Of a stretch of DNA of 64,000 nt, positions 7,275-64,000 are shown in pieces. The first letter of the stretch is position 1, and the number at the start of each line of letters is the position of its first letter. The notes under the pieces were generated by a model. The model made no database searches. It worked only from the letters and a program-made list of their open reading frames with translations, and was not told the origin of the DNA. This DNA comes from an uncultured Candidatus Saccharibacteria bacterium. GTDB lineage: Bacteria > Patescibacteriota > UBA1384 > XYA2-FULL-43-10 > 1-14-0-10-43-13. Position numbers and translations under genes: made by a program. The DNA is taken from the NCBI GenBank assembly GCA_964364265.1, contig CAYILA010000004.1, positions 9,126-73,125 of the forward strand. Direction: 5' to 3'.

Positions 7275-7373
7275 TCATCTCGAGCTCCAAGAGGGGCACT
7301 TTGGGCTGATCCGAGAGATCTTTTAAAAGATTCCTCCGCTCCCCGACAAGTCGAGGTCGGTCAGAATGACATC
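7275..7373. repeat. PE-1 palindromic element (gtcatcYcga ... tcagaatgac), intergenic between rnj and pnp
   Basis: Inverted termini, internal ggatcttttaaaagattcctccgctcc core, nested ccaagaggggcactttggg GC hairpin. Confidence 0.7.
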
Positions 7374-9590: not shown

Positions 9591-9603
9591 TAGTTTCCCA
9601 ATC

Positions 9604-9716
9604 TCCTACGAAATTACGAATCAAACGAAATTACTAAACTACTAAATTACGAATATTAAATGCGCTTTTCGTAATTTAGTATTTTTGTTGAATTCGTACT
9701 TTCGTAGGGTTATTAT
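9604..9716. promoter_or_regulatory. PE-3 palindromic leader element (cctacgaaattacgaat ... attcgtactttcgtagg) between rpsO and pnp
   Basis: Large imperfect inverted repeat with inner hairpin actaaattacgaa/ttcgtaatttagt; in the position of the rpsO-pnp intercistronic processing hairpin; family copies at 13905-14012, 38232-38380, 53909-53965. Confidence 0.5.
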
Positions 9717-10007
9717 TTATTTTCTTAAACCTAAATCAGTAATTAATTTACTGTACTTCTCTGCGTTTACTTTGTTCAGGTAATTTAGAAGTCGGCGTCT
9801 CTTGCCAACCATCATCAAAAGACCTCGGCGGGAATCAAAATCTTTCTTATGATTCTTCAAGTGTTTGGTCAAATCAGAGATCTTTTTAGTTAAAACCGCG
9901 ATTTGGACTTCGGTTGAACCGGTATCATCCTTGTGGGTCTGATATTTGGTAATCAAATCAACTCTGGCAGCTTTTCCTGTATTCTGCCCCTGTACTGTCT
10001 TTGGCAT
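9717..10007 (-). CDS. rpsO: 30S ribosomal protein S15
   Basis: 96 aa, full-length S15 similarity. Confidence 0.95.
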   Translation of the reverse strand: MPKTVQGQNTGKAARVDLITKYQTHKDDTGSTEVQIAVLTKKISDLTKHLKNHKKDFDSRRGLLMMVGKRRRLLNYLNKVNAEKYSKLITDLGLRK

Positions 10008-10258
10008 ATCTTCCTTTCGGCCGGCAATTCAAGAACAATTGTTCAATTGTTTCATTGTTTCATTGTTGAAACCGCAATGACAACTTACGCATCCCAACAA
10101 TTTAGCAATTTAGCAATTTAGCAATGAACCTGAAACTGGTCACTAATTTCTATTACGTTTTTTATGATACTATAATTTATTGATTTTTACAAGTCTAAAA
10201 TGAATTAGAGGCGCCCGATACAGGAGGGCGCCTCACGCTGTGCTGGAACAAACATGTT

Positions 10259-11925: not shown

Positions 11926-12074
11926 ATATGTTAAAGTGTCTATTGTATTCCAAGCGCATCATTCCACTTCGTGTCATCCCGACCGAAGTGGAGGGATCTT
12001 TTAAAAGATTTCTCGACTCGATAGATTCACTCACTCGAAATGACAAACTAATTAGAAATATAGGAATTACTGTT

Positions 12075-12458: not shown

Positions 12459-12550
12459 TGTCATCCCGAGCCCCAAAGGGGGCCCTTTGGGCCGGGTCGA
12501 GGGATCTTTTAAAAGATTCCTCCGCTCCCTGCGGTTGGTCGGAATGACAG
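12459..12550. repeat. PE-1 palindromic element with nested GC hairpin (ccccaaagggggccctttggg)
   Basis: gtcatcccgag ... ggtcggaatgacag inverted termini with the family core. Confidence 0.7.
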
Positions 12551-17928: not shown

Positions 17929-18049
17929 AATTTTAGAATATTGATTTCAGATTGTAGAAGTTAGAATGAGATTAGAGATTAGCAATTAGCAATTAGATTC
18001 TATATTATACATTCATTCTAAAATCTAATATCTATCCTCTAAATTCTAG

Positions 18050-19144
18050 TTATAGCTCCAATCTTAATTGACTATCCTTCTTCTTCTGTTCCTCGGTTAT
18101 TTTCCGTTGTTCTTCCGTCCGCCGGCCGGCGGATCCGTCCTTTCGTCTTTCAGTTTCCTTCGTAAATCTTTCAAGCAACGATTTAAACTGCAATTCCTCA
18201 AACAACTTCCGCAGTTCCCCCCTATCATACTGCCCCCATTTGGCATCTGCAAGAGAAAAATCAATCGGCACATTGCGTTCAATCGTGGCCAGCATTTGGG
18301 ATTGAAATGCCTGATCCTTGTGTTCGATCAACAACCTTAATATGCGAGGCTTTATATCCATTTGCTCGGCAAGCTTATCGATTGCTTCATTGTTCGATTG
18401 TTCGATTGTTAAATCAGCAATTGAGCAATTGAGCAATTGAGCAATCAGCCCATAAAGCTTCTCCAGCGTATCAAATTTAAGAATAAGATCAGTTGCAGTT
18501 TTGGGACCTATTGAAGGAACCCCGGGGATATTGTCCGAGGGATCCCCGGCAAGGGCTTTTAAGTCGACGAAATCCTCCGGATCGAGATTGTAAACCTCTT
18601 TCAAGTGTTTATGATCAAATATCTCCGCCTCCGAAAAGCCGCGCTTTAACATTAAAACTTTGACATGACCGTTTAGAAGTTGATAAACATCCTTGTCGCC
18701 CGAGGCGATGTAAATCATCAATTCTTCCTCTTGACTTTCGCCTTTCGCCTTTCGCCTTTCGCCTTTTAGGCATTTCTCTACTATTGTGCCGAGAATGTCG
18801 TCCGCCTCATATCCCTCTAGAGATAAAACCGGAATCCCGAAGGCCGCAAGCATCTCTTTTACCCGAGGAATCTGATCATAGAGTTCCTGATCGGCTTTAA
18901 CCCGCTTTGCTTTATATTCTTTATATTCGACATGCCGGAATGTCGGGCCGGCCAAATCAAAAGCGGCCGCGATGTAGTCGGGATGAAGTTCTTCGAGCAC
19001 CTTAATCAGCGCCAGAGCAAAACCGTAGGTTACATTAGTTAGTTCGCCCTTTGAATTCGATAAATTCTTAGGCAAAGCATGATAAGCCCGATGGATGATG
19101 GCGTTTGAATCGAGCAGGACTAAAGTTTTCATAACAAGATCCAA
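18050..19144 (-). CDS. 5'-3' exonuclease (Pol I N-terminal FEN-like domain) as a separate ORF
   Basis: 5'-nuclease domain with conserved acidic residues and H3TH; in-frame tandem-repeat insertions (caattgagcaat x3; cgcctttcgccttt x3). Confidence 0.85.
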   Translation of the reverse strand: MDLVMKTLVLLDSNAIIHRAYHALPKNLSNSKGELTNVTYGFALALIKVLEELHPDYIAAAFDLAGPTFRHVEYKEYKAKRVKADQELYDQIPRVKEMLAAFGIPVLSLEGYEADDILGTIVEKCLKGERRKAKGESQEEELMIYIASGDKDVYQLLNGHVKVLMLKRGFSEAEIFDHKHLKEVYNLDPEDFVDLKALAGDPSDNIPGVPSIGPKTATDLILKFDTLEKLYGLIAQLLNCSIADLTIEQSNNEAIDKLAEQMDIKPRILRLLIEHKDQAFQSQMLATIERNVPIDFSLADAKWGQYDRGELRKLFEELQFKSLLERFTKETERRKDGSAGRRTEEQRKITEEQKKKDSQLRLEL

Positions 19145-20793: not shown

Positions 20794-22533
20794 CTATATA
20801 ACCTCGAACACTTCCCCTACCGCTTTCTGTAATTCGTCATCGCTGGCCGGCTTCGCATCAATCTTTTTCCCGTCCATAAGTTCGCACCCTATTATACACT
20901 TTAAACCGGTAACATCATTCCAAATTTTTTCTAAAATCTGGCGATTTTTCACCTCCGATATCCGATCCTTGTGGAATTTGAATTTCACGCCCAAAACAAT
21001 TTTTTCGTTGCTGACCGTCAATGGTTTGGCGTCGCGGAGCAGTGCCGCCAGCGAGTTATTTTCCTTTTTGGTGGCATCGATTACCTTCTGCCAAAGATCG
21101 CCTGTCATCTCAAAAACCGGCGCCGGTGCTAGATCAGAATTGTTCAATTGCCCCAAAGGGGACTCTTCGGGTCTCATTGCTGAATTGTTGTCAGTAACAT
21201 CAGATTGTTTGGCTCCCGATTTCTTTTCGCTGTCATTGCGAGCCGTAGGCGCGGCAATCTTTTCTTCAGTTATGATAGATTGCTTCGTCGTTTCACTTCT
21301 CGCAATGACATCTTCTTTTAGCTTCTCCTTCTTTGGTTCTTCGGTTCCTCGGTTCTTCGGTTCTTCGATTTTTGAATCTTCCTCTTTTTGTTTTTCCTTC
21401 CTGGGCTGTTCCGCGTCCTTGGAATCCTCCCTTGATACTTGATACTTGATACTTGATACTTCTATGTTCGTCAACTCCACCACCGCCATCTCCAACGGCA
21501 AAATCGGGTTTGAGAGATCGCGGAGCAATCTCCCGCTTCCGATGAAGGTATCAATTGCTTTTTTGACCGTCTCATAATCGCAGTCAGAGGCCAATTTTTT
21601 GATTCTCTCGGTCCGCTCTTTCGTTTCCTCGAACAAGACACTGCCTGAAATTTGGTAAAGAAGTATTTTTCGCAGTGCTTCAATTACTTCGCGGATAAAC
21701 TGACTCGGATCGACTCCCTGTTCGTACAATTTTGAAATGATCGAAAGTCCTTTTTTCTGCTCTTTTGAAATTATCGCCTCGATCAGATCGAGGGCGCTCT
21801 CGCCGAATGATAGTCCCAGGAGGTTTTCGGCATCCTCTTTACTGATCTTACCGCCAAAACCGGCGACCTGCTCGAACAAGACGACTGAATCGCGAAAACC
21901 GCCCGCCGCCGCCGTGGCGATAGCGTCAAGCGCTCCGTCGTCTATGCTGATTTTCTCGGCCCTGGCTATCATTTTCAAATTTTTTATAATGTCCTCCTTG
22001 CCGACCCGCTTAAAATCGTAGCGCTGGGTCCGGGAGATGATAGTCGAAGGCAGTTTATGAATTTCGGTCGTCGCCAGGATGAAGACGACATGATCCGGCG
22101 GCTCCTCCAGCGTTTTGAGCAAGGCATTGAATGCCCCCTTCGAGAGCATATGAACTTCGTCGATGATATAAATCTTTTTGGAGGCCGAGGTCGGCGCCAA
22201 GCGGGCTTTGTCGATGATATCGCGGATATTGTCGACTCCCGTATGGGAGGCGGCGTCAATTTCGATTACATCAAGGGCGCTTCCGACCGCAATGGCCAGG
22301 CATTGATCGCACTTGTCGCAGGGTTCTCCGACCGCCAAATCCAAATTTTGGCAGTTGATCGCCTTAGCCAGAAGTCGGGCAGTGGTCGTCTTGCCGGTTC
22401 CGCGCGGACCGGTTAAGAGAAAGGCATGGGAAAGCCGGCCTAACTTGATTGCCGCCAGCAGGGTTTTACTGATGTGATCCTGGCCGATCAGGTCGGAGAA
22501 CTTTTGAGGACGGTATTTTTGATAAAAAGCCAT
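20794..22533 (-). CDS. dnaX: DNA polymerase III gamma/tau subunit
   Basis: AAA+ clamp-loader N-terminus (LLTGPRGTGKTT); in-frame tandem repeats ggttcttcggttcctcgg and atacttgat x3. Confidence 0.9.
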   Translation of the reverse strand: MAFYQKYRPQKFSDLIGQDHISKTLLAAIKLGRLSHAFLLTGPRGTGKTTTARLLAKAINCQNLDLAVGEPCDKCDQCLAIAVGSALDVIEIDAASHTGVDNIRDIIDKARLAPTSASKKIYIIDEVHMLSKGAFNALLKTLEEPPDHVVFILATTEIHKLPSTIISRTQRYDFKRVGKEDIIKNLKMIARAEKISIDDGALDAIATAAAGGFRDSVVLFEQVAGFGGKISKEDAENLLGLSFGESALDLIEAIISKEQKKGLSIISKLYEQGVDPSQFIREVIEALRKILLYQISGSVLFEETKERTERIKKLASDCDYETVKKAIDTFIGSGRLLRDLSNPILPLEMAVVELTNIEVSSIKYQVSREDSKDAEQPRKEKQKEEDSKIEEPKNRGTEEPKKEKLKEDVIARSETTKQSIITEEKIAAPTARNDSEKKSGAKQSDVTDNNSAMRPEESPLGQLNNSDLAPAPVFEMTGDLWQKVIDATKKENNSLAALLRDAKPLTVSNEKIVLGVKFKFHKDRISEVKNRQILEKIWNDVTGLKCIIGCELMDGKKIDAKPASDDELQKAVGEVFEVI

Positions 22534-26591: not shown

Positions 26592-26657
26592 ATGTCATCC
26601 CGAGCGAGTATAACGAGCCGAGGGATCCCTCCGTTCGCTCCGCTCAGTCGGGATGAC
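26592..26657. repeat. PE-1 palindromic element
   Basis: gtcatcccgagcgag ... ctcagtcgggatgacac. Confidence 0.65.
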
Positions 26658-26748
26658 ACTAATGTATTACTTTAAGGACTTTATAGACTTTCGACTATAA
26701 TTTCATTAATGTTATAATTACCAATAGAAATGAATTGCTAGGAGGGTA

Positions 26749-32445: not shown

Positions 32446-32871
32446 ATGAATAATACTGATAAAAATGATATGACCGTTTCCGAGCTTGCCCGGATAATGG
32501 ACAAAAAGTTTGACGGATTGACCGAGATTATGATCTCCGGTTTTGACCGTTTGGAAAAACGATCGGACGATATAGAGAGCGATGTAGAGATCATCAAATC
32601 CGATGTCGGAGTACTCAAGTCTGATGTTGGCACGCTCAAGTCTGATGTTGGCACGCTCAAGTCTGATGTTGGCACGCTCAAGTCTGATGTTGGCACGCTC
32701 AAGTCTAGTATGATAGATGTTCAATTAACTCAGAGAAAACATACTGAAACGCTTGCCGAACATTCAAAAATCCTTCACCGGATAGAAGGCGATGTAGAGA
32801 TGCTGATCGACCGCGACCTCAATCATGAAACGCGTATCGGAAGATTGGAAAAAATCGCCAAACCGATTTAA
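32446..32871 (+). CDS. Coiled-coil protein with 4 tandem 7-aa repeats (KSDVGTL) from a 21-nt DNA repeat
   Basis: caagtctgatgttggcacgct x4 at 32618-32701; heptad periodicity. Confidence 0.5.
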   Translation: MNNTDKNDMTVSELARIMDKKFDGLTEIMISGFDRLEKRSDDIESDVEIIKSDVGVLKSDVGTLKSDVGTLKSDVGTLKSDVGTLKSSMIDVQLTQRKHTETLAEHSKILHRIEGDVEMLIDRDLNHETRIGRLEKIAKPI

Positions 32872-37731: not shown

Positions 37732-38229
37732 TTACTCCTTGACTCGGTCGCCGGCGGCAGCTTTTGCTTTTCTTTCCAGTTCCTCTTCCTCGGCTTTCTT
37801 TTTGGCTTCGGCTATCTCTGCCTCTTTCGCCTTTTCTTCGGCGATCTTAGCCAATTCTTCTTCGGCGTCTTTTTCCTCCCAAACTTTGTGGTCGCGGTTG
37901 GTTTCCTTTAGGCGGGCATTCTTGCCGGAAAGCTCGCGGATGAAGTAAAGTTTGCTCCTGCGAACCCTGGACTGTTTGATTCTTTCAATCTTAACAATTC
38001 TTGGGCTGTGAATCGGGAAGACCCGCTCAACTCCGATTCCGAACGATTCTTTTCTGACTGTAAAAGTGCCGTCAAGCGTAGTGCCGTGTCTGGCGCCAAT
38101 CACAAGACCTTCAAAGATCTGGATTCTTTCCTTGCCGCCCTCGCGGACCTTGATATGAACTTTGACCGTGTCACCGGTCGAAATCTGGGGAATATTTTTT
38201 TTATTATATTTTTCTAAAATCTTTTGCAT
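37732..38229 (-). CDS. rplS: 50S ribosomal protein L19 with a Lys/Glu/Ala-rich C-terminal extension
   Basis: L19 core over residues 1-115; the extension is encoded by low-complexity gaagc/ggc repeats. Confidence 0.9.
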
Positions 38230-38654: not shown

Positions 38655-38745
38655 AATTCTAATATCGAATATCTAAATCCGAAACAATTTTCAAAATTCG
38701 AATTTCTAATTTGTTTCGATATTCGGATTTCGAGTTTCGTATTTA
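38655..38745. repeat. PE-2 element; also encodes the C-terminus (ETRNPNIETN) of the methyltransferase ORF
   Basis: atctaaatccgaaacaattttcaaaattcgaatttctaatttgtttcgatattcggatttcg. Confidence 0.6.
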
Positions 38746-40250
38746 AGAAATACAATCTCTCTTTTTACGACTTGATAATCTCTGCCATAAATCAATGGCG
38801 GACGCTCTTCAATATATCCTAAACTTTTAATTTCGTCAACACTCTCCCAATACAAACTGTAGCGTTTATTTTCCGTTGTCTCGATGAGTGGAAATACGAT
38901 ACAGACCGCCTCAATCTTTTTATCCAACTTTTTGATATTTTTCAAGAAATTGATGTAAGTATCCTTCACTTTCCGGTACTCACCTGCGGCGGCGCTCTGT
39001 GAAGGCATAAACTTCTTTGGCTCACCCAAGTAAGGTTCCGTAACCAGAACCATATTAGAATCTAGATTTTTGCCATGCCTGCCGGCAGGCAGGATTTTAG
39101 AATTTAGAATATTAATAAGTTCAGATGAAGTTGCATCTTCCTTAAAAAATCCTAAATTCGTACTTCTAGAATCTAGCATCTTCTCTTTTAGCCATTCCAA
39201 ATTCTTTTTTGTGTCTGATACCGCCTTCTCACTGATATCAGAGCCGATTACATCGCACCACAGCATCGCGGCTTCCATTAAAATATTACCGGAACCGCAG
39301 AAGGGATCTACCACCGCACAACGGTGGAAATCCAAATCCCTAATATCTAAATCCGAAACAATTTTTGAATTTTCAAAATTCGAATTTTTGATTTCTTTAG
39401 GATTTAGGATTTCGGATTTCGGATTTGCGTATGCGAGTGCAATGTTAACCATTGCACGAGCTAATTTATGTGGCATCATTCCCGAATATTTGTCAAAAGC
39501 CGGTTTTTCGTAGTCTCGCTCTGACCATTCTTCCGCATCGCTCAAACCGACGAGAACCCCCGCTGCCACCCCCGGTGTGGCAGCGGGGGTGTCGAACAAT
39601 CCTATCTCGATGCCTTTCCCGACAAGGTCGTTTTTAAGGGAAACGATGGATGAAAGAGCGTCCTCTTGACGAGATTCAATAAATCTTGCGGGGTGAGCGC
39701 CTTTTAACAAACGTTTTACCTCCAACCCCAAAGTATATATTTCACTCTTTTTAGCTGCGCCGAAATATTGGGAGATTCCAAAATTAATCTTACCGGTCCG
39801 CCCCATCTTCTCACGCTTAATTATGTCAGCTATTGCTATAGCCAATCCATGACTTGTCATCCCGACCGTTCCTCCTGTCATCCCGACCGAAGTGGAGGGA
39901 TCTTTTGATAGGAGACGTCGTCCCGAGCTTGCCGAGGGATTCCTCGGCTTCTTTTCATTTCGCTCGGAATGACAATTAATGAGACGGAATATTTTTATAG
40001 TGCCGCCAAGTATTTCGGAGAGCTTCGCCACTTCATCAGCTTCAATATTTTCTATGTTGATGACGGCAACATTTCCCGTTACTATGGGTTTATCAAAACA
40101 AAAACCAAGACGGCCCAAAGTCGCCTCCAACTCGACGAGCGCAATCTCTTTTTCTCGTCCCAAAACAAAAGCATATGTTCTATAGGTTTGGCTATTGTCC
40201 ATAATCGTATAATCATACCAGAAACACTTTATCCTGTCACGAGTAATCAA
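38706..40250 (-). CDS. Putative THUMP-type RNA (guanine-N2/adenine-N6) methyltransferase carrying four in-frame repeat-element insertions
   Basis: SAM motif VVDPFCGSGN; PE-1 x2 (39855-39974), PE-2 (39336-39428), GC palindrome (39068-39100) and a terminal PE-2 all read through in frame. Confidence 0.55.
   Translation of the reverse strand: MITRDRIKCFWYDYTIMDNSQTYRTYAFVLGREKEIALVELEATLGRLGFCFDKPIVTGNVAVINIENIEADEVAKLSEILGGTIKIFRLINCHSERNEKKPRNPSASSGRRLLSKDPSTSVGMTGGTVGMTSHGLAIAIADIIKREKMGRTGKINFGISQYFGAAKKSEIYTLGLEVKRLLKGAHPARFIESRQEDALSSIVSLKNDLVGKGIEIGLFDTPAATPGVAAGVLVGLSDAEEWSERDYEKPAFDKYSGMMPHKLARAMVNIALAYANPKSEILNPKEIKNSNFENSKIVSDLDIRDLDFHRCAVVDPFCGSGNILMEAAMLWCDVIGSDISEKAVSDTKKNLEWLKEKMLDSRSTNLGFFKEDATSSELINILNSKILPAGRHGKNLDSNMVLVTEPYLGEPKKFMPSQSAAAGEYRKVKDTYINFLKNIKKLDKKIEAVCIVFPLIETTENKRYSLYWESVDEIKSLGYIEERPPLIYGRDYQVVKREIVFLKYETRNPNIETN
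39336..39428. repeat. PE-2 element inside the methyltransferase CDS, in frame
   Basis: Encodes NPKSEILNPKEIKNSNFENSKIVSDL. Confidence 0.7.
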
Positions 40251-54544: not shown

Positions 54545-55840
54545 ATGAAGAAAGTATTTATTGCAATGAGCGGTGGGGTAGACAGTTCTGTGGCCGCGGC
54601 TCTCCTCAAAGATCAGGGATACGATGTTACCGGCGTATTCATGAAGTTCTGGAGCCCCAACTTCGCTTCCGCCTCCGGCGGAGCTTCGCTGGGCGAGCCC
54701 GACGACAATCAGAGCTCTTTTTGCCTATGGAAGAAGGAGCGCGAAGATGCCCTGCGCGTCGCCGCCATCATAGATATTCCACTTTTAACTTGGGATTTCA
54801 CTAAGGAATACGAGAGTAAGGTTGTTGATTATATGATTGATGCCTACAAACAGGGTATAACTCCCAATCCCGATCTGATGTGTAACAAAGAGATCAAGTT
54901 CGGAATGTTCTTTAATAAAGCTCTTGCCGAAGGCGCCGATTTAATCGCGACCGGACATTACGCGCAAATTAGAATTAAGAATCAAGAATTAAGAATCAAG
55001 GGTAGTTGTCATTCCTGCGAAAGCAGGAATCTTAAGATCCCTGATCTAGTCAGGGATGACAGTCATAACGGATACGAACTGTTAAAGGCGAAAGATCTCA
55101 ATAAAGATCAAAGCTATTTCCTATACACGCTTAACCAGAAACATCTAAGCAAGACCTTGTTCCCAATCGGAAAATACACCAAACCACAAGTGCGTGAACT
55201 TGCAAAGAAGTTCGGTCTCCCGACAGCCGAGAAGAAGGATAGCCAGGGCGTCTGCTTTATCGGACCACTCAAAGTCAGGGAATTTCTGAAGGAGAGAATC
55301 AAACCGAAAAAAGGCAGCATAGTCAAAATTAGTAAATCAGCCCCGAAGGGGAGCCTTCGGCTCCATCAGCTAATCAGTAAATCAGTTATAAAATCTGATC
55401 CGCTTGTTTTTGGTACTCACGACGGAGTTTATTACTACACTATCGGCCAGCGGCACGGTATGGACATTAAAAACGGCGGCGGTCCATACTTTGTGACCAG
55501 AAAAGATGTTAAGAAAAATATTCTCTATGTCGGAGAAGAGAAAGATCTCTATTCCGATACGGCCATTGTGCCTAATGTAACTTGGGTTGGGGCAATGCCA
55601 ATACTACCCGCCGAAATTGGAGTTAAGATTAGGTATAGAAGCGAGTCCATTCCGTGTGTGCTGGAAAACAATGAAGCAATTGAACAATTGAACAATGACG
55701 GGCTTTGTACTGCTGAATCAGAGAGATATAATCATTCACTAAAACTACGATTTCATAAAAGAGCAAGAGCCATCACACCCGGACAGGCTGCTGTCTTCTA
55801 TGACGATGATAAAGTCCTCGGAGGCGGGACAATTATTTAA
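54545..55840 (+). CDS. mnmA: tRNA-specific 2-thiouridylase MnmA
   Basis: PP-loop SGGVDSS; in-frame inserts: aattaagaatcaag tandem, PE-1 (55006-55062, CHSCESRNLKIPDLVRDDS), and a caattgaacaat tandem (NNEAIEQLNN). Confidence 0.9.
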   Translation: MKKVFIAMSGGVDSSVAAALLKDQGYDVTGVFMKFWSPNFASASGGASLGEPDDNQSSFCLWKKEREDALRVAAIIDIPLLTWDFTKEYESKVVDYMIDAYKQGITPNPDLMCNKEIKFGMFFNKALAEGADLIATGHYAQIRIKNQELRIKGSCHSCESRNLKIPDLVRDDSHNGYELLKAKDLNKDQSYFLYTLNQKHLSKTLFPIGKYTKPQVRELAKKFGLPTAEKKDSQGVCFIGPLKVREFLKERIKPKKGSIVKISKSAPKGSLRLHQLISKSVIKSDPLVFGTHDGVYYYTIGQRHGMDIKNGGGPYFVTRKDVKKNILYVGEEKDLYSDTAIVPNVTWVGAMPILPAEIGVKIRYRSESIPCVLENNEAIEQLNNDGLCTAESERYNHSLKLRFHKRARAITPGQAAVFYDDDKVLGGGTII

Positions 55841-57430: not shown

Positions 57431-60076
57431 TTATTTCGGCCACTTTGCGATCATAATCGATTCCGATAGTTTCGGATAAATCTGGCGCAAATCCTGCCAG
57501 ACAGCTTCGGTTACAAACGGCATGAATGGGTGAAGCATAATTAGAGTTTCTGAAAGAACTTTCATTAAGATTTTCTTCGTATTTGTGATCACCTCAATAG
57601 ATTCATTGTCATTCGGTTTTCGGTTTTCGGTTACGAGACCCGTTTCGGTTACGTCGGACGTTTTACGTGACCGCTCGACGATACGGACTTCGCCTGCCTC
57701 GCCGGTAGGCGGGTTACCGTTACCGCATGACGGTTGTAGCTGTGCCTTCGATGCTTCGATGTAAACATCGGCAAAGCTGTGCCAGAAGTACTCGTACAGC
57801 TTCTCACCCGCAAGCGAAAATTTATATTCATCGAGTAAGCGTGTTACTTCATTTTTGATCTCTTCATGCTCTTTCAAGATTGCTTTGTCGGCATCTGTCA
57901 ACCCGGGGACAGTCCCCGAGGGGGACAGTCCCCTTGCAATCCTTGATTCTCCAATGTCACCGCTCTGTAAGTCACCGTCTGAAACTCGCAGGATCACATA
58001 GCGCGAGGCGTTCCATATTTTATTCGAGAAATTTCGATATCCCTTGATTTTCGCCTCGCCAATGGGAATATCCTGGCCGGGCGTTGAGCCCACCACAAGT
58101 GCCATACGCATGGCGTCCGTACCGTATTTGGGTATTAAATCAAGAGGATCAAGGACATTGCCCAAAGATTTGCTCATCTTGCGGTTCTGCTCATCGCGCA
58201 CTAAACCATGGAGATAAACAGTCTCAAAGGGCGCTTTACCTGTAAATTCCAGTCCAAACATTATCATTCTAGCTACCCAGAAGAAGAGGATGTCGTAGCC
58301 GGTCTCCATCACACTCGTCGGATAGAAATATTGATAATCGCAATTAGTTATTCCCGACGCATAGGAGAATGGATGACTATTGCAATTTTCTTCGCTGTCA
58401 TCCTCGGGCTTGACCCGGGGATCTTTCGAAAGATTCCCGATCTGGTCGGGAATGACATCGCTGGACTGAGGCCAGCCAAGAGTTGAGAACGGCCAAAGAG
58501 CAGAGGAGAACCAGGTATCAAGCACATCCTCGTCCTGAACCCAGCCATCGCCTTCCGGCGGTTCAACGCCGACATAGATCTCGCTGTCGCTCGACAAATC
58601 CGAATCTCTAATATCTAAACCTACCTGTCCGGTAGGCAGGTCCGAAACAATTTTTGAATTTTCAAAATTCGAATTTCTAATTTCTTTAGGATTTAGGATT
58701 TCGGATTTCGGATTTCCTGCCTGTCTGTACCAAACCGGTATCTGATGTCCCCACCAGAGCTGACGCGAAACACACCAGTCGCGGATATTATCCATCCACT
58801 GGTAATACACTTTATCGAACCTGTTTGGAATTATTTTAATCTCACCGCTCTCAACCGCTTCTTTCGCCTTGTCGGCCAACGGCCGCATCTTTACAAACCA
58901 CTGTTTGGATGGAATCGGCTCAATCGATCCCCCACACCTATAACACTTGGATAAGTTATTCGTAATCTCCTGCTCCTTTTCAAGCAGTCCCTGGCTCTTC
59001 AAGTATTCAACCAATTTCTCGCGTGCCTCCGACACTTTTATACCGGTATATTTCCCGGCTTCATCCGTCATCTTGCCGTATTCATCAATAACTTTGATGA
59101 CAGGCAAACCGTTATCCTCGGCCATTTTCCAATCGGCGAATGAGTGCGCCGGCGTCAAACCGACCGCGCCTGTTCCGAATTCCTTATCTATCGATCGATT
59201 GGCGATAATTTTAATAGTCCTTTTGACTCCATCAATATCAACTTCATATGATTTACCCACAAATTCCTGATATCGCCGGTCATCCGGGTTTACGGCCACG
59301 CCGGTGTCGCCCAATTTTGTTTCGGGACGGGTGGTGGCGATGGTTACGGGAAAATTTTTATCGTATTTGAAGTAATATAATTTAGCGTTTTGTTCCTCGT
59401 ATTCCACCTCATCATCGGAAATTGCCGTCTGGCAACGCGAACACCAATTCACTACCCGCAACCCTCGATAGATGAGGCCTTTTTCGTATAGCTGGACGAA
59501 AGCTTCGCGCACGGCGCGGTTTAAGCCCTCATCCAATGTAAAGCGCTCTCTTGACCAATCGCAAGACGCTCCGAGGCGCTTTATCTGCTCGGTGATGATA
59601 CCTCCGTACCGCTCCTTCCACTCCCAAACTTTTTCGACAAATTTCTCCCGCCCAAGATCGTGCCTATTGATCCCCTGTTTCCGTAATTCTTTATCAACCA
59701 CTGTTTGAGTGGCAATACCGGCATGATCCGTGCCTGGCAGCCACAGAGTCGGCTCGCCTTTCAAACGATGATATCGAGTCAAAATATCTTCCAAGGTGAC
59801 AAACATGGCGTGACCCATATGCAATTTACCTGTAACATTCGGCGGCGGCATTGAAATCACAAAGGGCTTGCCGTCTTTGTCTCGATCATAGCTGAAGGAA
59901 CAACCACCAACCTTGTCATCCTCGGGCTTGACCCGGGGATCTTTTGCAACAAGATTCCCGCTTTCGCGGGAATGACAATAAGAAGTCTCCGGTTTAAAAT
60001 AACCTTTTTCTTCCCATTGTTTATAGAGTTCGGTTTCAAAATTTTGCGGTTCATATGCCTTTGGTATGTTTTTCAT
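57431..60076 (-). CDS. valS: Valyl-tRNA synthetase with three in-frame repeat-element insertions
   Basis: HIGH-class motif PPPNVTGKLHMGHA and KMSKS; PE-1 at 59914-59977 and 58405-58470; PE-2 with a nested GC palindrome at 58598-58716. Confidence 0.95.
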   Translation of the reverse strand: MKNIPKAYEPQNFETELYKQWEEKGYFKPETSYCHSRESGNLVAKDPRVKPEDDKVGGCSFSYDRDKDGKPFVISMPPPNVTGKLHMGHAMFVTLEDILTRYHRLKGEPTLWLPGTDHAGIATQTVVDKELRKQGINRHDLGREKFVEKVWEWKERYGGIITEQIKRLGASCDWSRERFTLDEGLNRAVREAFVQLYEKGLIYRGLRVVNWCSRCQTAISDDEVEYEEQNAKLYYFKYDKNFPVTIATTRPETKLGDTGVAVNPDDRRYQEFVGKSYEVDIDGVKRTIKIIANRSIDKEFGTGAVGLTPAHSFADWKMAEDNGLPVIKVIDEYGKMTDEAGKYTGIKVSEAREKLVEYLKSQGLLEKEQEITNNLSKCYRCGGSIEPIPSKQWFVKMRPLADKAKEAVESGEIKIIPNRFDKVYYQWMDNIRDWCVSRQLWWGHQIPVWYRQAGNPKSEILNPKEIRNSNFENSKIVSDLPTGQVGLDIRDSDLSSDSEIYVGVEPPEGDGWVQDEDVLDTWFSSALWPFSTLGWPQSSDVIPDQIGNLSKDPRVKPEDDSEENCNSHPFSYASGITNCDYQYFYPTSVMETGYDILFFWVARMIMFGLEFTGKAPFETVYLHGLVRDEQNRKMSKSLGNVLDPLDLIPKYGTDAMRMALVVGSTPGQDIPIGEAKIKGYRNFSNKIWNASRYVILRVSDGDLQSGDIGESRIARGLSPSGTVPGLTDADKAILKEHEEIKNEVTRLLDEYKFSLAGEKLYEYFWHSFADVYIEASKAQLQPSCGNGNPPTGEAGEVRIVERSRKTSDVTETGLVTENRKPNDNESIEVITNTKKILMKVLSETLIMLHPFMPFVTEAVWQDLRQIYPKLSESIMIAKWPK
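58598..58716. repeat. PE-2 element inside valS, in frame, with a nested GC palindrome
   Basis: Encodes NPKSEILNPKEIRNSNFENSKIVSDL then PTGQVG. Confidence 0.7.
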
Positions 60077-61662: not shown

Positions 61663-62628
61663 GTGATAGAATATACCTACATGGAAAACATATTCCAATC
61701 CGATGAGTGGGCTGATTTTAAGTTGGCAACCGGATATCAGGAGAGCTTCCGGATCAATAGCATTTTAATATTAAAAAAAATCCTCCCGTTCGGCCGCTCG
61801 ATGCTCTACTCGCCGATGGTGTCCGGTTCGCAGGTTGCGGGACTTAGGGCGCAGACATTCATTGACCAAGTAAATTCTATCGTTTTGAAATCTAAATCAA
61901 TTTTTTTTCGTCTGGAGTTAGATGTGCCTAGCGACAATGAAGCAATTAAACAATTTAACAATTTGCGAAAGCCGGGCTTTCGCAAGGCATTTGAGGAAAT
62001 GCAGCCCGAAAACTCACTTGTAATTGACCTCGCAAAGACCGAAGAAGAGATTTTATCCGGTATGAAGCAAAAGGGTCGCTATAATATCAAAATCGCCCGG
62101 AACGCCGGCCTTCTTATTTCATCGGACAATAAGAAAGGGGAGATGCTTGACAATTTTTACTGGCTTTATACCGAGACCGCCAAACGGCAGAAGATCACCT
62201 TTAGAGCCAAGGCATATTTTGAAAAGCTACTTGATAATTTAGGTGGAAAGGATTATGCTCGCCTGTACAATGTTTACGCCAGAAATCCGGACGATGGGAA
62301 AGTCTTGTCAGCCGCAATCGTCGTCTATTCGGGGGAGAAAGCGATATATCTTTTCGGCGCTTCCTCCGACGAACACCGGAATCTGATGGCGCCATACCTG
62401 ATGCAATGGCAGATGATTAGAGACGCCAAAGAGAAGGGTTATAAAACATACGATTTCTTCGGGATTGCTCCCAACGACGACGAAAATCACCCTTGGGCCG
62501 GCATAACCAGATTCAAAAAGCAATTCGGAGGCGAAGAGATAAAGATTTTGGGCAGTTACGACCTTGTCTTTAAACCATTTGAGTACAAAGTGTTTAAAAT
62601 GGCTGAAAAACTTAGGAGAAAGAGCTAA
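61663..62628 (+). CDS. FemAB family peptidoglycan interpeptide-bridge aminoacyltransferase (likely start at the MEN Met near 61681)
   Basis: FemAB-type GNAT-like halves; in-frame caattaaacaatttaacaat repeat (DNEAIKQFNN). Confidence 0.7.
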   Translation: MIEYTYMENIFQSDEWADFKLATGYQESFRINSILILKKILPFGRSMLYSPMVSGSQVAGLRAQTFIDQVNSIVLKSKSIFFRLELDVPSDNEAIKQFNNLRKPGFRKAFEEMQPENSLVIDLAKTEEEILSGMKQKGRYNIKIARNAGLLISSDNKKGEMLDNFYWLYTETAKRQKITFRAKAYFEKLLDNLGGKDYARLYNVYARNPDDGKVLSAAIVVYSGEKAIYLFGASSDEHRNLMAPYLMQWQMIRDAKEKGYKTYDFFGIAPNDDENHPWAGITRFKKQFGGEEIKILGSYDLVFKPFEYKVFKMAEKLRRKS

Positions 62629-62666
62629 TTGCTCAATGGCTCGATTGCTCGATTGTTAGGATAACA

Positions 62667-64000
62667 ATGGAACAGTCGAACAATAGAACAATGGAGCTTA
62701 TGAAGCGTTTTTTATCCAACATTCTTCCCCAGTCTACAAAAAACAAGTATCACAAAGCCCAAGCCAAATGGGCTCGTATTAGGTATGGAAACCCGAGTCG
62801 CGACCTAACAATTATCGGCGTCACCGGCACCAAAGGCAAAACAACCGTCTGCTCGATGATCTCGGCAATTTTAGACGCCGCCGGGCTTCATAACGCCATG
62901 GAGACCACAATCTCCACCAAGATCGGCAACTTGGTTACTCCACACAGGGTCAAAGACAAGTGGGTGACCACCCCGCCGGCTTCGGTGATCAATAAATTCT
63001 TTAGGCAAGCACTCGACGCAGGTTGCAAGTATCTGATTATGGAAGTAACCTCACAAGCGATTGACCAATACCGCGTCTTCGGGATTGAATTTGATGTTTT
63101 GGTCTATACCAATCTTTCTCACGACCACCTTGACTACCACAAAACCAAGGAGAACTATCTTGCCGCCAAAATGAAAGTGTTTGAAGACAATCCGAACGCT
63201 ATATTCGTAATTAATCGTGACGACGCTCACTGGAATAAGTTTTACGATCTTCCAGCCAAGGAGAAATTTCTTTATTCGGTGAAGACCCCGATTGAGCACG
63301 GTGCAGTAGCCAGAAAGATATTGAAGACATCCGACACCGCTACCTTTACCGCCGCCTATGATGACGGTCAATTTGCCGGTCAAATCACAGTTGCCCTAAA
63401 CCTCCCGGGAGTGTTCAATGTTCAAAACGCTCTTTCCGCTTTCTGTGTCGGCCGTGCCTTGGCCATCGAACCGGAAATAATCAAGAAGGGACTGGAAAGT
63501 ATTGAAACAGTTACCGGCCGGATGGAATCAATCAGAGTCTCCCAAAAGCAGGATTTTACAGTCCTGGTTGACTACGCTCACAACCCGGATTCGCTCAAAA
63601 ATGTCTACGAAACGGTCCGCGAGAGCATCGACAAGACAGGCGGACGGATAATTGCCGTCTTGGGCGCTACCGGCCGCCGCGACCGGACAAAACGGCCGAT
63701 TATGGGTGCCTTGGCCGGTTGTTATGCCGATTATGTTATTTTTACGAATGAGGATCCTTACGATGAGGCACCCGAAGCTATTATGGAAGAGGTAGCCGAG
63801 GGTATTCACAGGGGAAGCAAAAAGCATCAATGGTACCTAAACCGCAATTATTGGAAGGTACTTGACAGAGGCCAGGCGATTCACAAGGCGATTAAAGAGG
63901 CAAAGAAGAATGATGTCGTCATTATAACCGGCAAGGGTGCTGAAGAGGTGATGGCTGTCGGCCGTGACAAGTTTGTGCCTTTTTCCGACCGCAAGATCGC
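62667..64000 (+). CDS. Mur ligase family (MurE/MurF-like UDP-MurNAc-peptide ligase), 3'-truncated by the window end
   Basis: Translated by hand: IGVTGTKGKTT P-loop and DYAHNPDS motif; absent from the ORF track only because there is no stop before position 64000. Confidence 0.75.
   Translation, partial: MEQSNNRTMELMKRFLSNILPQSTKNKYHKAQAKWARIRYGNPSRDLTIIGVTGTKGKTTVCSMISAILDAAGLHNAMETTISTKIGNLVTPHRVKDKWVTTPPASVINKFFRQALDAGCKYLIMEVTSQAIDQYRVFGIEFDVLVYTNLSHDHLDYHKTKENYLAAKMKVFEDNPNAIFVINRDDAHWNKFYDLPAKEKFLYSVKTPIEHGAVARKILKTSDTATFTAAYDDGQFAGQITVALNLPGVFNVQNALSAFCVGRALAIEPEIIKKGLESIETVTGRMESIRVSQKQDFTVLVDYAHNPDSLKNVYETVRESIDKTGGRIIAVLGATGRRDRTKRPIMGALAGCYADYVIFTNEDPYDEAPEAIMEEVAEGIHRGSKKHQWYLNRNYWKVLDRGQAIHKAIKEAKKNDVVIITGKGAEEVMAVGRDKFVPFSDRKI

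Follow-up and report, generated by a model that had tools for sequence, protein, structure and literature searches.

Peptides of the type NNEAI(E/D)QLNN occur in three unrelated proteins encoded on a Patescibacteria (CPR) contig from Hainich groundwater, and tandem repeats of similar sequence lie between its genes. The question raised by this locus is whether such peptides form a protein motif or derive from a single translated DNA repeat, and whether this repeat changes in copy number among strains as a hypermutable microsatellite would do. All the sites on which the original prediction was based were located in the stretch analysed here (64,000 nucleotides, hereafter the window), confirming the basic observation.

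One octamer family between and within genes

The coding repeat is indeed a tandem, but its real unit measures 8 nt and not the 12 nt initially proposed. The family is made of 8-nt tandem arrays with a CAAT/ATTG core, (ATTGCTNN)n and (AACAATNN)n, which occur in the window well above chance: CAATTGARCAAT was found 7 times for 0.04 matches expected, CAATN4CAATN4CAAT 13 times for 0.01, and the two-arm pattern 5 times for 0. A complete element consists of (ATTGCTNN)3-4, a short spacer and (AACAATNN)3-4, which together make an imperfect inverted repeat of ~70-100 nt. This full hairpin form is present 5' of rpsO, 5' of a Mur ligase gene and within the gene of a 5'-3' exonuclease, while mnmA, a FemAB-family gene and dnaX contain one-arm copies (Table 1); no hairpin-forming inverted repeat exists in the single-arm copies of mnmA (folding z +1.0) and FemAB (folding z +1.65). 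The rpsO-upstream copy ends 29 nt 5' of the ATG (10007), and the one preceding the Mur ligase begins within the FemAB stop codon and ends 5 nt 5' of the next ATG (62700), its final unit overlapping the GGAG that precedes this start. Of the three intergenic sites initially grouped together, these two belong to the octamer family; the third one (17971-17997) is a period-7 array of TAGCAAT/ATTAGAA that has the core in common with the family but not the period, and falls outside it.

Table 1. Repeat-bearing features of the window, in order of position
Feature	Position	Strand	Units, translation and context
Two-arm copy 5' of rpsO	10036..10125	-	ATTGCTAA x3.5, 30-nt spacer, AACAATGA/AACAATTG x4 (- strand)
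Hairpin between exonuclease and polA genes	17934..18048		Heptamer-periodic arms, including TAGCAAT x2
5'-3' exonuclease gene	18050..19132	-	Pfam domains 5_3_exonuc_N and 5_3_exonuc
Exonuclease hairpin, two arms and loop	18374..18450	-	With immediate flanks, a 28-residue insertion
Exonuclease 3' arm (gene sense)	18378..18410	-	ACAATCGA/ACAATGAA/GCAATCGA x4, giving LTIEQSNNEAID; as TCGATTGT x4.1
Exonuclease 5' arm (gene sense)	18416..18445	-	CTCAATTG x3.75, giving IAQLLNCSIA; as AGCAATTG x3.75, 100% matches
Exonuclease heptamer array	18735..18766	-	GCGAAAG x4.6, giving GERRKAKGE; second variable site
dnaX two-unit fragment	21139..21150	-	CAATTGAACAAT, giving GQLNNS; interdomain linker
dnaX octamer array	21329..21367	-	CGAAGAAC x4.9 (sense strand); linker, domain III to DnaX_C
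dnaX heptamer array	21431..21461	-	GTATCAA x4.4; linker, domain III to DnaX_C
mnmA heptamer array	54971..55000	+	AGAATYA x4.3, giving RIKNQELRIK; start of ~26-residue insertion
mnmA single-arm array	55667..55696	+	AACAATGA AGCAATTG AACAATTG AACAATGA, giving NNEAIEQLNN
FemAB-family single-arm array	61934..61963	+	ACAATGAA GCAATTAA ACAATTTA ACAATTT, giving DNEAIKQFNN
Two-arm copy 5' of Mur ligase	62628..62695	+	ATTGCTCN x4, GAT, AACAATNG x4

The octamer is part of a wider panorama of short-period repeats. Exact tandems of at least three copies are nearly all of period 7 (n=6) or period 8 (n=2), with none in shuffled sequences, and 25 of the 45 period-7/8 arrays are found in non-coding DNA (~14% of the window), many of them 2-30 nt 5' of a start codon. 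Moreover, nearly all the intergenic leaders of this genome contain a hairpin whose arms are made of 7-/8-nt tandem units. Arrays are also hosted by the genes of dnaX, the 5'-3' exonuclease, mnmA, a class I aminoacyl-tRNA synthetase and TsaD, among them the additional in-frame tandems that had been listed for dnaX, the exonuclease and mnmA. An Rfam 15 scan of the window at the gathering threshold gave no family match to the element and returned four tRNAs only, and in a window-wide scan with 90-nt folds the signal was lost in noise at the chosen threshold.

Since 8 nt do not make up a whole number of codons, the frame changes from unit to unit, and three units in a row, one per frame, encode a cycle of eight residues, LNCSIAQL or TIEQ[L/S]NN*. 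The CTCAATTG unit of the exonuclease 5' arm has no stop in any frame, and the coding copies, all of them in frame, deviate from the perfect repeat just where the TGA or TAA of the unit would become an in-frame stop. The copies of the exonuclease (TIEQSNNEAIDKL), mnmA (ENNEAIEQLNNDG) and FemAB (SDNEAIKQFNNL) have in common an identical sense-strand 13-mer, ACAATGAAGCAAT, which is translated as NNEAI in each of them, so that the proposal of a single DNA repeat, intergenic as well as in frame, behind similar peptides of three unrelated proteins was borne out.

The CAAT-family copies occupy permissive loops and linkers of housekeeping proteins. Compared with its solved homologues, MnmA shows three discrete insertions and a longer C-terminal stretch, poorly aligned. 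The FemAB array sits in a variable loop and is not a clean insertion. The mnmA and FemAB copies are missing in most orthologues, and the loops that contain them vary between distant relatives, which indicates turnover over long times instead of slippage of units. The same variable sites of CPR orthologues are filled by differing repeat-derived peptides. The MnmA proteins of P0123 and P0127 have CAAT peptides at other sites, and at site 1 the exonuclease P0018 carries a CAAT-type octamer array (TTTAACAA x4.1) that encodes LAIEQFNNLTI. In two other CPR genomes (L027 and L096) RsmA also contains the two-arm element in frame, and two-arm copies were found elsewhere at 21 loci of several phyla, in mixed orientation to the neighbouring ORFs.

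Conservation and length of the exonuclease element

The in-frame tandem initially noticed in the exonuclease is present, although it corresponds to two arrays, each one the inverted repeat of the other. The 28 residues of the insert (228-255) fall between positions equivalent to residues 218 and 219 of Taq polymerase in a PDB alignment, and distant orthologues lack them; this copy is thus an insertion relative to its homologues at a site tolerated by the fold. In the AlphaFold2 model the fold of the enzyme is intact and the insert appears as helices flanking a short loop (pLDDT 84-95, means of 10-residue blocks), which suggests that the added peptide is a tolerated surface helix-loop-helix. 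In comparison with the Pol I chain 6vde, the heptamer array of the second variable site falls within an insertion of 12 residues, in a region of low pLDDT.

Exonuclease orthologues with 60-76% identity outside the element contain it at the same site, and in eight of them the octamer is preserved as DNA, with the same boundary and frame in 8/8. At conserved residues, codon identity is 0.75 within the element against 0.41 outside it, a difference for which 0 of 20000 permutations reached so high a value, and third-codon-position identity is 0.58-0.90 against 0.34-0.45 in all 28 pairs of sequences. Across the orthologues, 92.5% of the cells of the hairpin are paired, the U.G columns are conserved and four compensatory pairs occur, in a covariation analysis that comprised 8 related sequences and whose score was equalled in 2/500 shuffles. 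Synonymous sites of the exonuclease element are therefore nearly frozen, with a few compensatory changes from arm to arm.

Folding of this element (18374-18450) is markedly asymmetric. The + strand, antisense to the gene, reaches -39.3 kcal/mol (z -8.9), in comparison with -19.6 kcal/mol (z -2.8) for the sense strand, and the same bias was observed in 7/7 orthologues. Against a null of synonymous recoding, moreover, the antisense fold lies 2.1-4.1 SD lower in 6/7 orthologues, whereas the sense fold stays at the null. We discarded the replication strand as the cause of the G.U asymmetry, since the + strand is favoured at 10030 and 18380 but the - strand at 62625, with a negative GC skew in 30 of 32 2-kb bins of the window. 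A universal antisense orientation was also refuted, as orientations are mixed in other genomes and the better-folding strand in RsmA of L096 is the sense one; with both the favoured strand and the orientation to ORFs mixed in this way, there is no single strand-specific function.

The expectation of length polymorphism did not survive the comparison of assemblies. One of them aligns with the window over 9439 bp, covering at least six arrays, with 99.84% identity, 15 SNPs and 0 gaps; the replicates R1 and R2 differ from the window by 1-2 mismatches without gaps, and altogether 0 indels were found among three replicate assemblies, which are consensus assemblies from one site. A difference of 57 nt in dnaX between the window and R1 turned out to be a run of N in a scaffold gap, and another Patescibacteria MAG from the same well (L075) belongs to a different organism and gave no BLAST match to the window. 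On a longer scale, exonuclease orthologues differ by +1 or +3 codons (3 or 9 nt) and never by 8-nt steps. The arrays are therefore fixed in length, and the exonuclease copy joins this constancy to conservation in orthologues down to ~60% identity, the combination that was anticipated to refute its hypervariability.

The element-bearing exonuclease orthologues are paraphyletic in a quick NJ tree, in which an ancient origin with losses and a recurrent gain are inseparable. A recent recurrent gain would produce frozen synonymous sites without selection.

A probable translated palindromic repeat and its rivals

Taking the explanation as a whole, we consider it probable that the family is an in-frame palindromic repeat similar to the Rickettsia palindromic elements (RPE) and of the 7-8-nt long-SSR kind, that the NNEAI(E/D)QLNN-like peptides are the translation of this one DNA repeat family and not a protein motif, and that the exonuclease DNA hairpin has been retained far longer than protein coding alone accounts for. 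Slippage or template switching at hairpins could have generated the units, or these could have spread as a small non-autonomous element. Within genes, presumably only in-frame and stop-free copies survive, which would account for the orientation of the coding copies, for the imperfections of those in mnmA and FemAB and for the common 13-mer. At the nucleic-acid level the repeat is probably maintained by selection, homogenisation or re-insertion; in the case of the exonuclease, persistence of the hairpin may come from selection on nucleic-acid structure, concerted evolution between the arms or repeated re-insertion at a hotspot.

A rather unlikely alternative is that a mobile miniature element inserted recently and repeatedly at hairpin-prone or permissive sites, in which case the conservation in the exonuclease would reflect parallel gain or segmental recombination. 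Such an element would fit with the many unrelated repeat families found at the same variable sites across orthologues, with the changing position of the CAAT array between them, with the paraphyly just mentioned, with the 13-mer of the three coding copies of this genome, which is missing from the orthologous ones, and with an element common, flanks included, to P0012 and P0015, which are non-sisters in the tree. Recent insertion agrees poorly, however, with the invariant boundary and frame of the eight sequenced copies, or with variants that cluster by lineage (the window with P0002, and P0013 with L132, the latter pair with CAATACAA units). Moreover, the locus of a relative (L003) keeps a perfect 3-copy exonuclease arm in 21 kb with hardly any other 7-8-nt arrays. 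In an unsystematic look confined to the window, neither terminal inverted repeats nor target-site duplications were noticed at the element borders and no transposase was recognised among the scanned proteins, so that we can only infer mobility.

It is also unlikely that we are facing a functional module present across phyla, a long helix in which a G.U (or C.A) position recurs every 8 bp and which would be under purifying selection even over CPR housekeeping coding sequences (5'-3' exonuclease, RsmA), possibly as an RNA or single-stranded DNA structure with a regulatory or protein-binding role, for example in antisense or translational control, with the insertions as by-products. More doubtful is the narrower proposal of a functional structured RNA or single-stranded DNA overlapping the coding sequence, such as a protein-binding antisense or cis-regulatory hairpin with phased G.U pairs, whose intergenic copies would act on downstream translation. 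The strand asymmetry of the exonuclease fold and its position relative to the recoding null, together with the conserved U.G columns and the compensatory pairs, argue for it, as do the intergenic copies that end 5-29 nt 5' of start codons, like the TAACTGA repeats for which a role as sites of translational regulators has been proposed (PMC4679880). However, composition alone makes a G+U-rich strand fold better than its complement, the favoured strand is reversed in RsmA of L096 and gene orientation is mixed elsewhere, the element is without Rfam match, the single-arm copies of mnmA and FemAB are unfolded, and a promoter and terminator scan around the exonuclease gave nothing above shuffles and no convincing antisense promoter or terminator.

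A true protein motif or small domain (NNEAIEQLNN / LLNCSI), independently recruited for a common function, for example as a helical interaction module, is improbable. The ordered model of the exonuclease insert and the conservation of its peptide among orthologues would agree with it, but the identical 13-nt string and the 8-nt units read in three frames account in full for the similarity, the same units remain untranslated in intergenic DNA, codon choice is conserved beyond the residues, the loops involved are not homologous and belong to unrelated folds, and most orthologues do without the mnmA and FemAB copies. Least credible of all are hypermutable coding microsatellites, contingency loci whose slippage would alter copy number to switch or vary proteins, since the perfect short-unit tandems within ORFs and the variable loops of distant orthologues that invite this reading are opposed by 0 indels in 9.4 kb with at least six arrays between strains 15 SNPs apart and none among the three replicate assemblies, by orthologue lengths that differ by 3 or 9 nt and not by units, by synonymous sites slower in the element than in the rest of the gene, and by the frameshift that any 7-/8-nt step would cause in essential dnaX, mnmA, exonuclease and aminoacyl-tRNA synthetase genes.

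Under the preferred explanation of a translated palindromic repeat, the resemblance between peptides of unrelated proteins in uncultivated bacteria can have its origin in the translation of a DNA repeat, with consequences for domain annotation, homology searches and the features of language models trained on such proteomes. Small CPR genomes appear to tolerate, and sometimes to retain for long, hairpin repeats in the essential dnaX, Pol I 5' nuclease, MnmA and RsmA, and defined loops of CPR proteins behave as insertion hotspots. The frozen synonymous sites and the compensation between arms of the exonuclease may reflect selection; if so, this gene would be under overlapping protein and nucleic-acid-structure constraints, and would offer a handle on the 7-8-nt repeat hairpins that fill the intergenic leaders of several phyla.

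Comparison with known repeat systems

Nothing directly relevant to CPR hairpins built of octamers or heptamers, or to repeats inserted in frame in CPR, came out of our literature search, and the closest parallels come from other organisms. The RPEs, reportedly described by Ogata et al. in 2000 as palindromic elements inserted in frame within protein-coding genes of Rickettsia, are ~100-150 bp long and lack an internal 8-nt periodicity. As in their case, we find one family of short hairpin repeats both in intergenic DNA and in frame in conserved genes (in the window, and also in RsmA of L027 and L096), at fold-tolerated sites, with a passenger peptide and some insertions common to related species. 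Sequence and host phylum are unrelated, however, and the comparison is therefore one of mode of existence only; moreover, the arms consist here of octamers in tandem and can also be found singly.

Small and abundant hairpin repeats of bacteria such as REP/BIME, Correia or ERIC are mainly intergenic too, with possible effects on mRNA. In contrast to them, no terminal inverted repeats, target-site duplication or RAYT/transposase were recognised in the window, and octamer periodicity and in-frame coding copies are atypical of those families. TIGR arrays were set aside, as no variable spacers separate the identical octamers found here and a Tas gene was not seen. The phase-variable contingency loci of pathogens, with short SSRs in ORFs or promoters, resemble our arrays in having short tandems within reading frames. 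No copy-number variation was found here among consensus assemblies, however, and the hosts are essential housekeeping genes in which a unit step would mean a lethal frameshift, not the toggling of a dispensable gene.

Among coding palindromes, those of Nematomorpha mitochondria (PMC6649704) are likewise inverted repeats in coding sequence with both arms translated, but they are long and perfect, up to 284 bp, belong to animal mitochondria and have no phased tandem units. A nearer relative is the class of long SSRs, with units of 5-11 nt (Mrazek 2007, as reported in MacGregor 2015, PMC4679880), which includes the TAACTGA heptamer repeats of Beggiatoaceae, Cyanobacteria and Bacteroidetes (MacGregor 2015, PMC4679880). 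The arrays of the window, above chance for such unit lengths and mostly non-coding, share with them the tandems of 7-8 nt that exceed chance and are mainly intergenic, the frequent end of arrays a few nt 5' of a start codon, including those of ribosomal-protein genes, the limits that unit-encoded stop codons impose on orientation within ORFs, and a patchy, cross-phylum distribution (PMC4679880). What sets the present family apart is its CAAT-core 8-nt unit, the inverted pairs of arrays that form a long hairpin, and the location of copies in the middle of essential enzymes and not just at protein ends, one of them with frozen synonymous sites.

The octamer repeat and its hairpins

On the forward strand, positions 18378-18445 read (TCGATTGT)x4.1, AAATC, (AGCAATTG)x3.75, the second array being perfect; on the sense strand of the exonuclease gene the element appears as (ATTGCTCA)x3.75, GATTTA, ACAATCGA ACAATCGA ACAATGAA GCAATCGA. 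Where a unit is repeated exactly three or more times in the window, the period is almost always 7 (six cases) or 8 (two cases); shuffled sequences have no such tandems, the window has none with periods 5, 6, 10, 11 or 12, and the same two periods dominate the 83 rows of Tandem Repeats Finder. Because both analyses concentrate at periods 7 and 8, the unit is an octamer and not the 12-mer of the original prediction. The window contains seven matches to CAATTGARCAAT (0.04 expected), 13 to CAATN4CAATN4CAAT (0.01 expected) and five to the two-arm pattern (0 expected).

The order ATTGCTNN array, spacer, AACAATNN array is repeated in two intergenic copies, and the one following FemAB terminates in GGAG, five bases before the Mur-ligase start codon. 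These are two of the three intergenic arrays initially proposed; the third, at 17971-17997, is a heptamer relative, a different repeat. The mnmA, FemAB and dnaX copies keep only AACAATNN-type units, and computation gave no fold for them. The arms are complementary except at a recurrent position, where ATTGCT faces AACAAT; one strand has C.A there and its complement G.U, so that the exonuclease element folds better on the forward strand (-39.3 kcal/mol, z -8.9) than on the sense strand (-19.6 kcal/mol, z -2.8).

Non-coding DNA, about 14% of the sequence, holds 25 of the 45 period-7/8 arrays of the window, and many arrays end 2-30 nt before a start codon. Most intergenic regions are, by folding, long hairpins with arms built of these arrays, including the one between rpsO and pnp, where E. 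coli has an RNase III-processed hairpin; similar TACGAAAT arrays precede two further genes, with starts at 38229 and 53903. Other repeats were observed in the window too. A 15-bp palindrome, GATCTTTTAAAAGAT, has three exact copies, each inside a longer GGGATCTTTTAAAAGATYCCTC-like dyad, and six matches on both strands at one mismatch or fewer (0.04 expected). A perfect 21-nt tandem, CTCAAGTCTGATGTTGGCACG x4.4, nested in a 42-nt higher-order repeat, lies in a small ORF, where its predicted product is a repeat of seven residues.

Genes and repeats of the window
Feature	Coordinates	Strand	Remark
Pol I-type 5'-3' exonuclease, stand-alone	18050-19132	-	Pfam
dnaX	20794-22533	-	Pfam
mnmA	54545-55840	+	Pfam
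FemAB-family transferase	61663-62628	+	Pfam
Two-arm intergenic copy	10125-10036	-	end 29 nt before rpsO start codon
Two-arm intergenic copy	62628-62695	+	begins in FemAB stop codon
rpsO-pnp intergenic hairpin	9591-9719		folds at about -39 kcal/mol, whichever the strand; TACGAAAT-type octamers form the arms
TTTCGGA / TTTAGGA array	58660-58716		class I aminoacyl-tRNA synthetase gene, 57431-60076
TTTCGGA / TTTAGGA array	39396-39426		ORF 38706-40250
Palindrome GATCTTTTAAAAGAT	7317-7331, 11995-12009, 12503-12517		exact copies
Tandem CTCAAGTCTGATGTTGGCACG	32594-32706		ORF 32446-32871
Second hairpin type, GTCATTGCGAG...CTCGCAATGAC, GTCATTCCTGCGAAAGCAGGAATC...GGGATGAC, TGTCATCCCGAGCGAG...TCGGGATGACA	21240-21306, 55007-55062, 26593-26658		dnaX linker, mnmA, intergenic
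mnmA insertion with GC hairpins	55310-55400		residues about 261-286

Coding copies and their host proteins

The gene names first assigned to the four hosts were all confirmed by Pfam. Contigs carrying the gene for the exonuclease protein come from the 0.1 µm fraction of Hainich groundwater well H51, and relatives of the protein carry the annotations Patescibacteria/CPR and Berkelbacteria. An 8-nt unit shifts the reading frame at each repetition, so three successive units pass through all three frames, giving an 8-residue cycle: CTCAATTG yields LNCSIAQL, ACAATCGA TIEQSNNR, AACAATTG TIEQLNN* and AACAATTT QFNNLTI*. Units with TGA or TAA cannot stand in three perfect copies in any frame, which explains why the mnmA and FemAB arrays have imperfections precisely where a stop would fall; the exonuclease arm, without stops, is perfect. 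The proposal that one DNA repeat underlies look-alike peptides in three proteins holds, as ACAATGAAGCAAT, encoding NNEAI, is identical on the sense strand of exonuclease, mnmA and FemAB. Judged from these sequences, the peptide resemblance is a property of the DNA and does not come from protein homology. This 13-mer is absent from the orthologous copies, a hint of within-genome homogenisation or recent spread. A second case of likeness by DNA repeat is that of the TTTCGGA / TTTAGGA heptamer arrays, which give the same peptide NPKSEILNPKEI in two unrelated proteins.

In the exonuclease, residues 228-255 have no counterpart in Taq polymerase, where they would fall between residues 218 and 219; AlphaFold2 models this insertion as a helix, a short loop and a helix (10-residue block mean pLDDT 84-95), and the heptamer array of the gene lies inside a 12-residue insertion relative to Pol I chain 6vde. 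The first exonuclease site is empty (LYKQIDSAEIREKVKELL) in more distant CPR-type orthologues; every orthologue in the clade around the window has 10-60 additional residues there, from source repeats that are quite different among orthologues. Relative to S. pneumoniae MnmA, the protein of the window has three discrete insertions and, at the C-terminus, a longer stretch that aligns poorly. CPR orthologues (345-448 residues) differ greatly at all four sites, and the DNA of the other insertions is hairpin-forming too. The loop occupied by the FemAB array varies in sequence and is longer by just about 4 residues.

Other repeats were seen at such sites. One mnmA insertion consists of two small GC hairpins, CCCCGAAGGGG and GAGCCTTCGGCTC, flanked by a direct repeat, ATTAGTAAATCAG / TAATCAGTAAATCAG, that looks like a target-site duplication. 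A second hairpin type is translated in frame as VIARSETTKQS...ARNDS in DnaX and SCHSCESRNL...VRDDS in MnmA; related peptides (VIASEAKQS..LAMT, ..YARDDN, ..QDDK) are common in metagenomic proteins and occupy the exonuclease hotspot in other orthologues. At its first variable site (locus L009, 10363-10482), the orthologue P0018 has TCAAAAA x8 together with TTTAACAA x4, a CAAT-type octamer array translated as LAIEQFNNLTI; the conserved element is at another variable site. In related CPR loci, small 23S_rRNA_IVP / bAvd-domain genes adjoin polA (L005 6148-6495, L010 13494-13817); proteins of this type accompany diversity-generating retroelements, and no counterpart was noticed in the window.

Length stability and conservation in the exonuclease gene

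The arrays do not behave as the hypervariable microsatellites formerly implied. Compared with the window, two of three replicate assemblies differed by 1-2 mismatches without gaps other than a scaffold gap of Ns, and the third, from a slightly different strain, showed 99.84% identity over 9439 bp, with 15 SNPs, no gap and no SNP in any of the at least six arrays of that stretch. Among orthologues the exonuclease insert is equal in length or longer by one or three codons, never by 8-nt steps, so the expected length polymorphism was not found there either. Ten of the 15 SNPs fall within 79 bp of the exonuclease gene (18545-18623), a cluster that suggests a recombination tract more than point mutation.

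Eight orthologues, 60-76% identical in amino acids outside the element, keep the octamer periodicity in their DNA. Over residues conserved in six or more of these sequences, the pairwise identity of codons is 0.75 within the element, compared with 0.41 in the rest of the gene, a contrast matched by none of 20000 permutations; Leu, for example, is TTG in all eight, and third-position identity is higher in the element (0.58-0.90) than elsewhere (0.34-0.45) in 28 of 28 pairs. On the antisense strand the consensus hairpin comprises 25 pairs, and 92.5% of cells are paired, against 27-54% in slid controls. Three of its columns are conserved as U.G, and four pairs have changed in a compensatory way at the unit's variable dinucleotide; its covariation score was reached in 2 of 500 shuffles. 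In six of seven orthologues the stability of the antisense fold exceeds a synonymous-recoding null by 2.1-4.1 SD; the sense fold is at that null. Rfam gave no family match for the element, and no antisense promoter stands out there.

Altogether, these alignments offer the intriguing picture of a hairpin inside an essential exonuclease gene that appears conserved beyond coding constraint. Its retention may reflect selection on a nucleic-acid structure, concerted evolution of each arm and between the two, or a hotspot where the element re-inserts repeatedly or segments are exchanged. In a quick NJ tree the orthologues that carry the element form a paraphyletic group. The 21 kb of the related locus L003 have almost no further arrays with 7-8-nt units, yet a perfect arm of three copies persists in the exonuclease gene there.

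Distribution and known repeat systems

A scan of species-representative genomes for ATTGCTNNATTGCTNNATTGCT gave at least 119 stretches in many phyla, where our uniform-composition estimate expects tens of chance matches at that collection size; many of those listed are plain single arrays. Among the matches listed, the two-arm form accounts for 24 elements in 21 loci, mostly with ACAAT and not GCAAT in the second arm, carried by CPR lineages, Bacteroidota, Gammaproteobacteria MAGs, Caldilineaceae and others. RsmA/KsgA has an in-frame two-arm element at the same site in two CPR genomes, a Patescibacteria and a Saccharibacteria MAG (LLNCSIAQLL...TIQQFNNE and LLNCTIVKLL...AIQQFSNS); one of the two has a slightly more stable fold on the sense strand. 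In other phyla, orientation relative to neighbouring ORFs is mixed, by crude ORF calling.

The evidence is consistent with a repeat family that would reside mainly in intergenic leaders and occasionally join a gene at a permissive loop, its coding copies being filtered for frame and stop codons. Rickettsia palindromic elements have the same mode of existence, as intergenic repeats sometimes found in a gene at a permissive loop. Our literature search found no paper describing a CAAT-octamer hairpin element. As a type of repeat, it corresponds to long SSRs with 7-8-nt units and to the TAACTGA repeats, which are likewise placed just upstream of start codons and whose stops limit their orientation inside ORFs (PMC4679880). 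The element is thus a variant of repeats already known, both long SSRs and palindromic repeats inserted in frame, and is unusual in its arms of tandem octamers and in the long retention of a DNA-level hairpin in the exonuclease.
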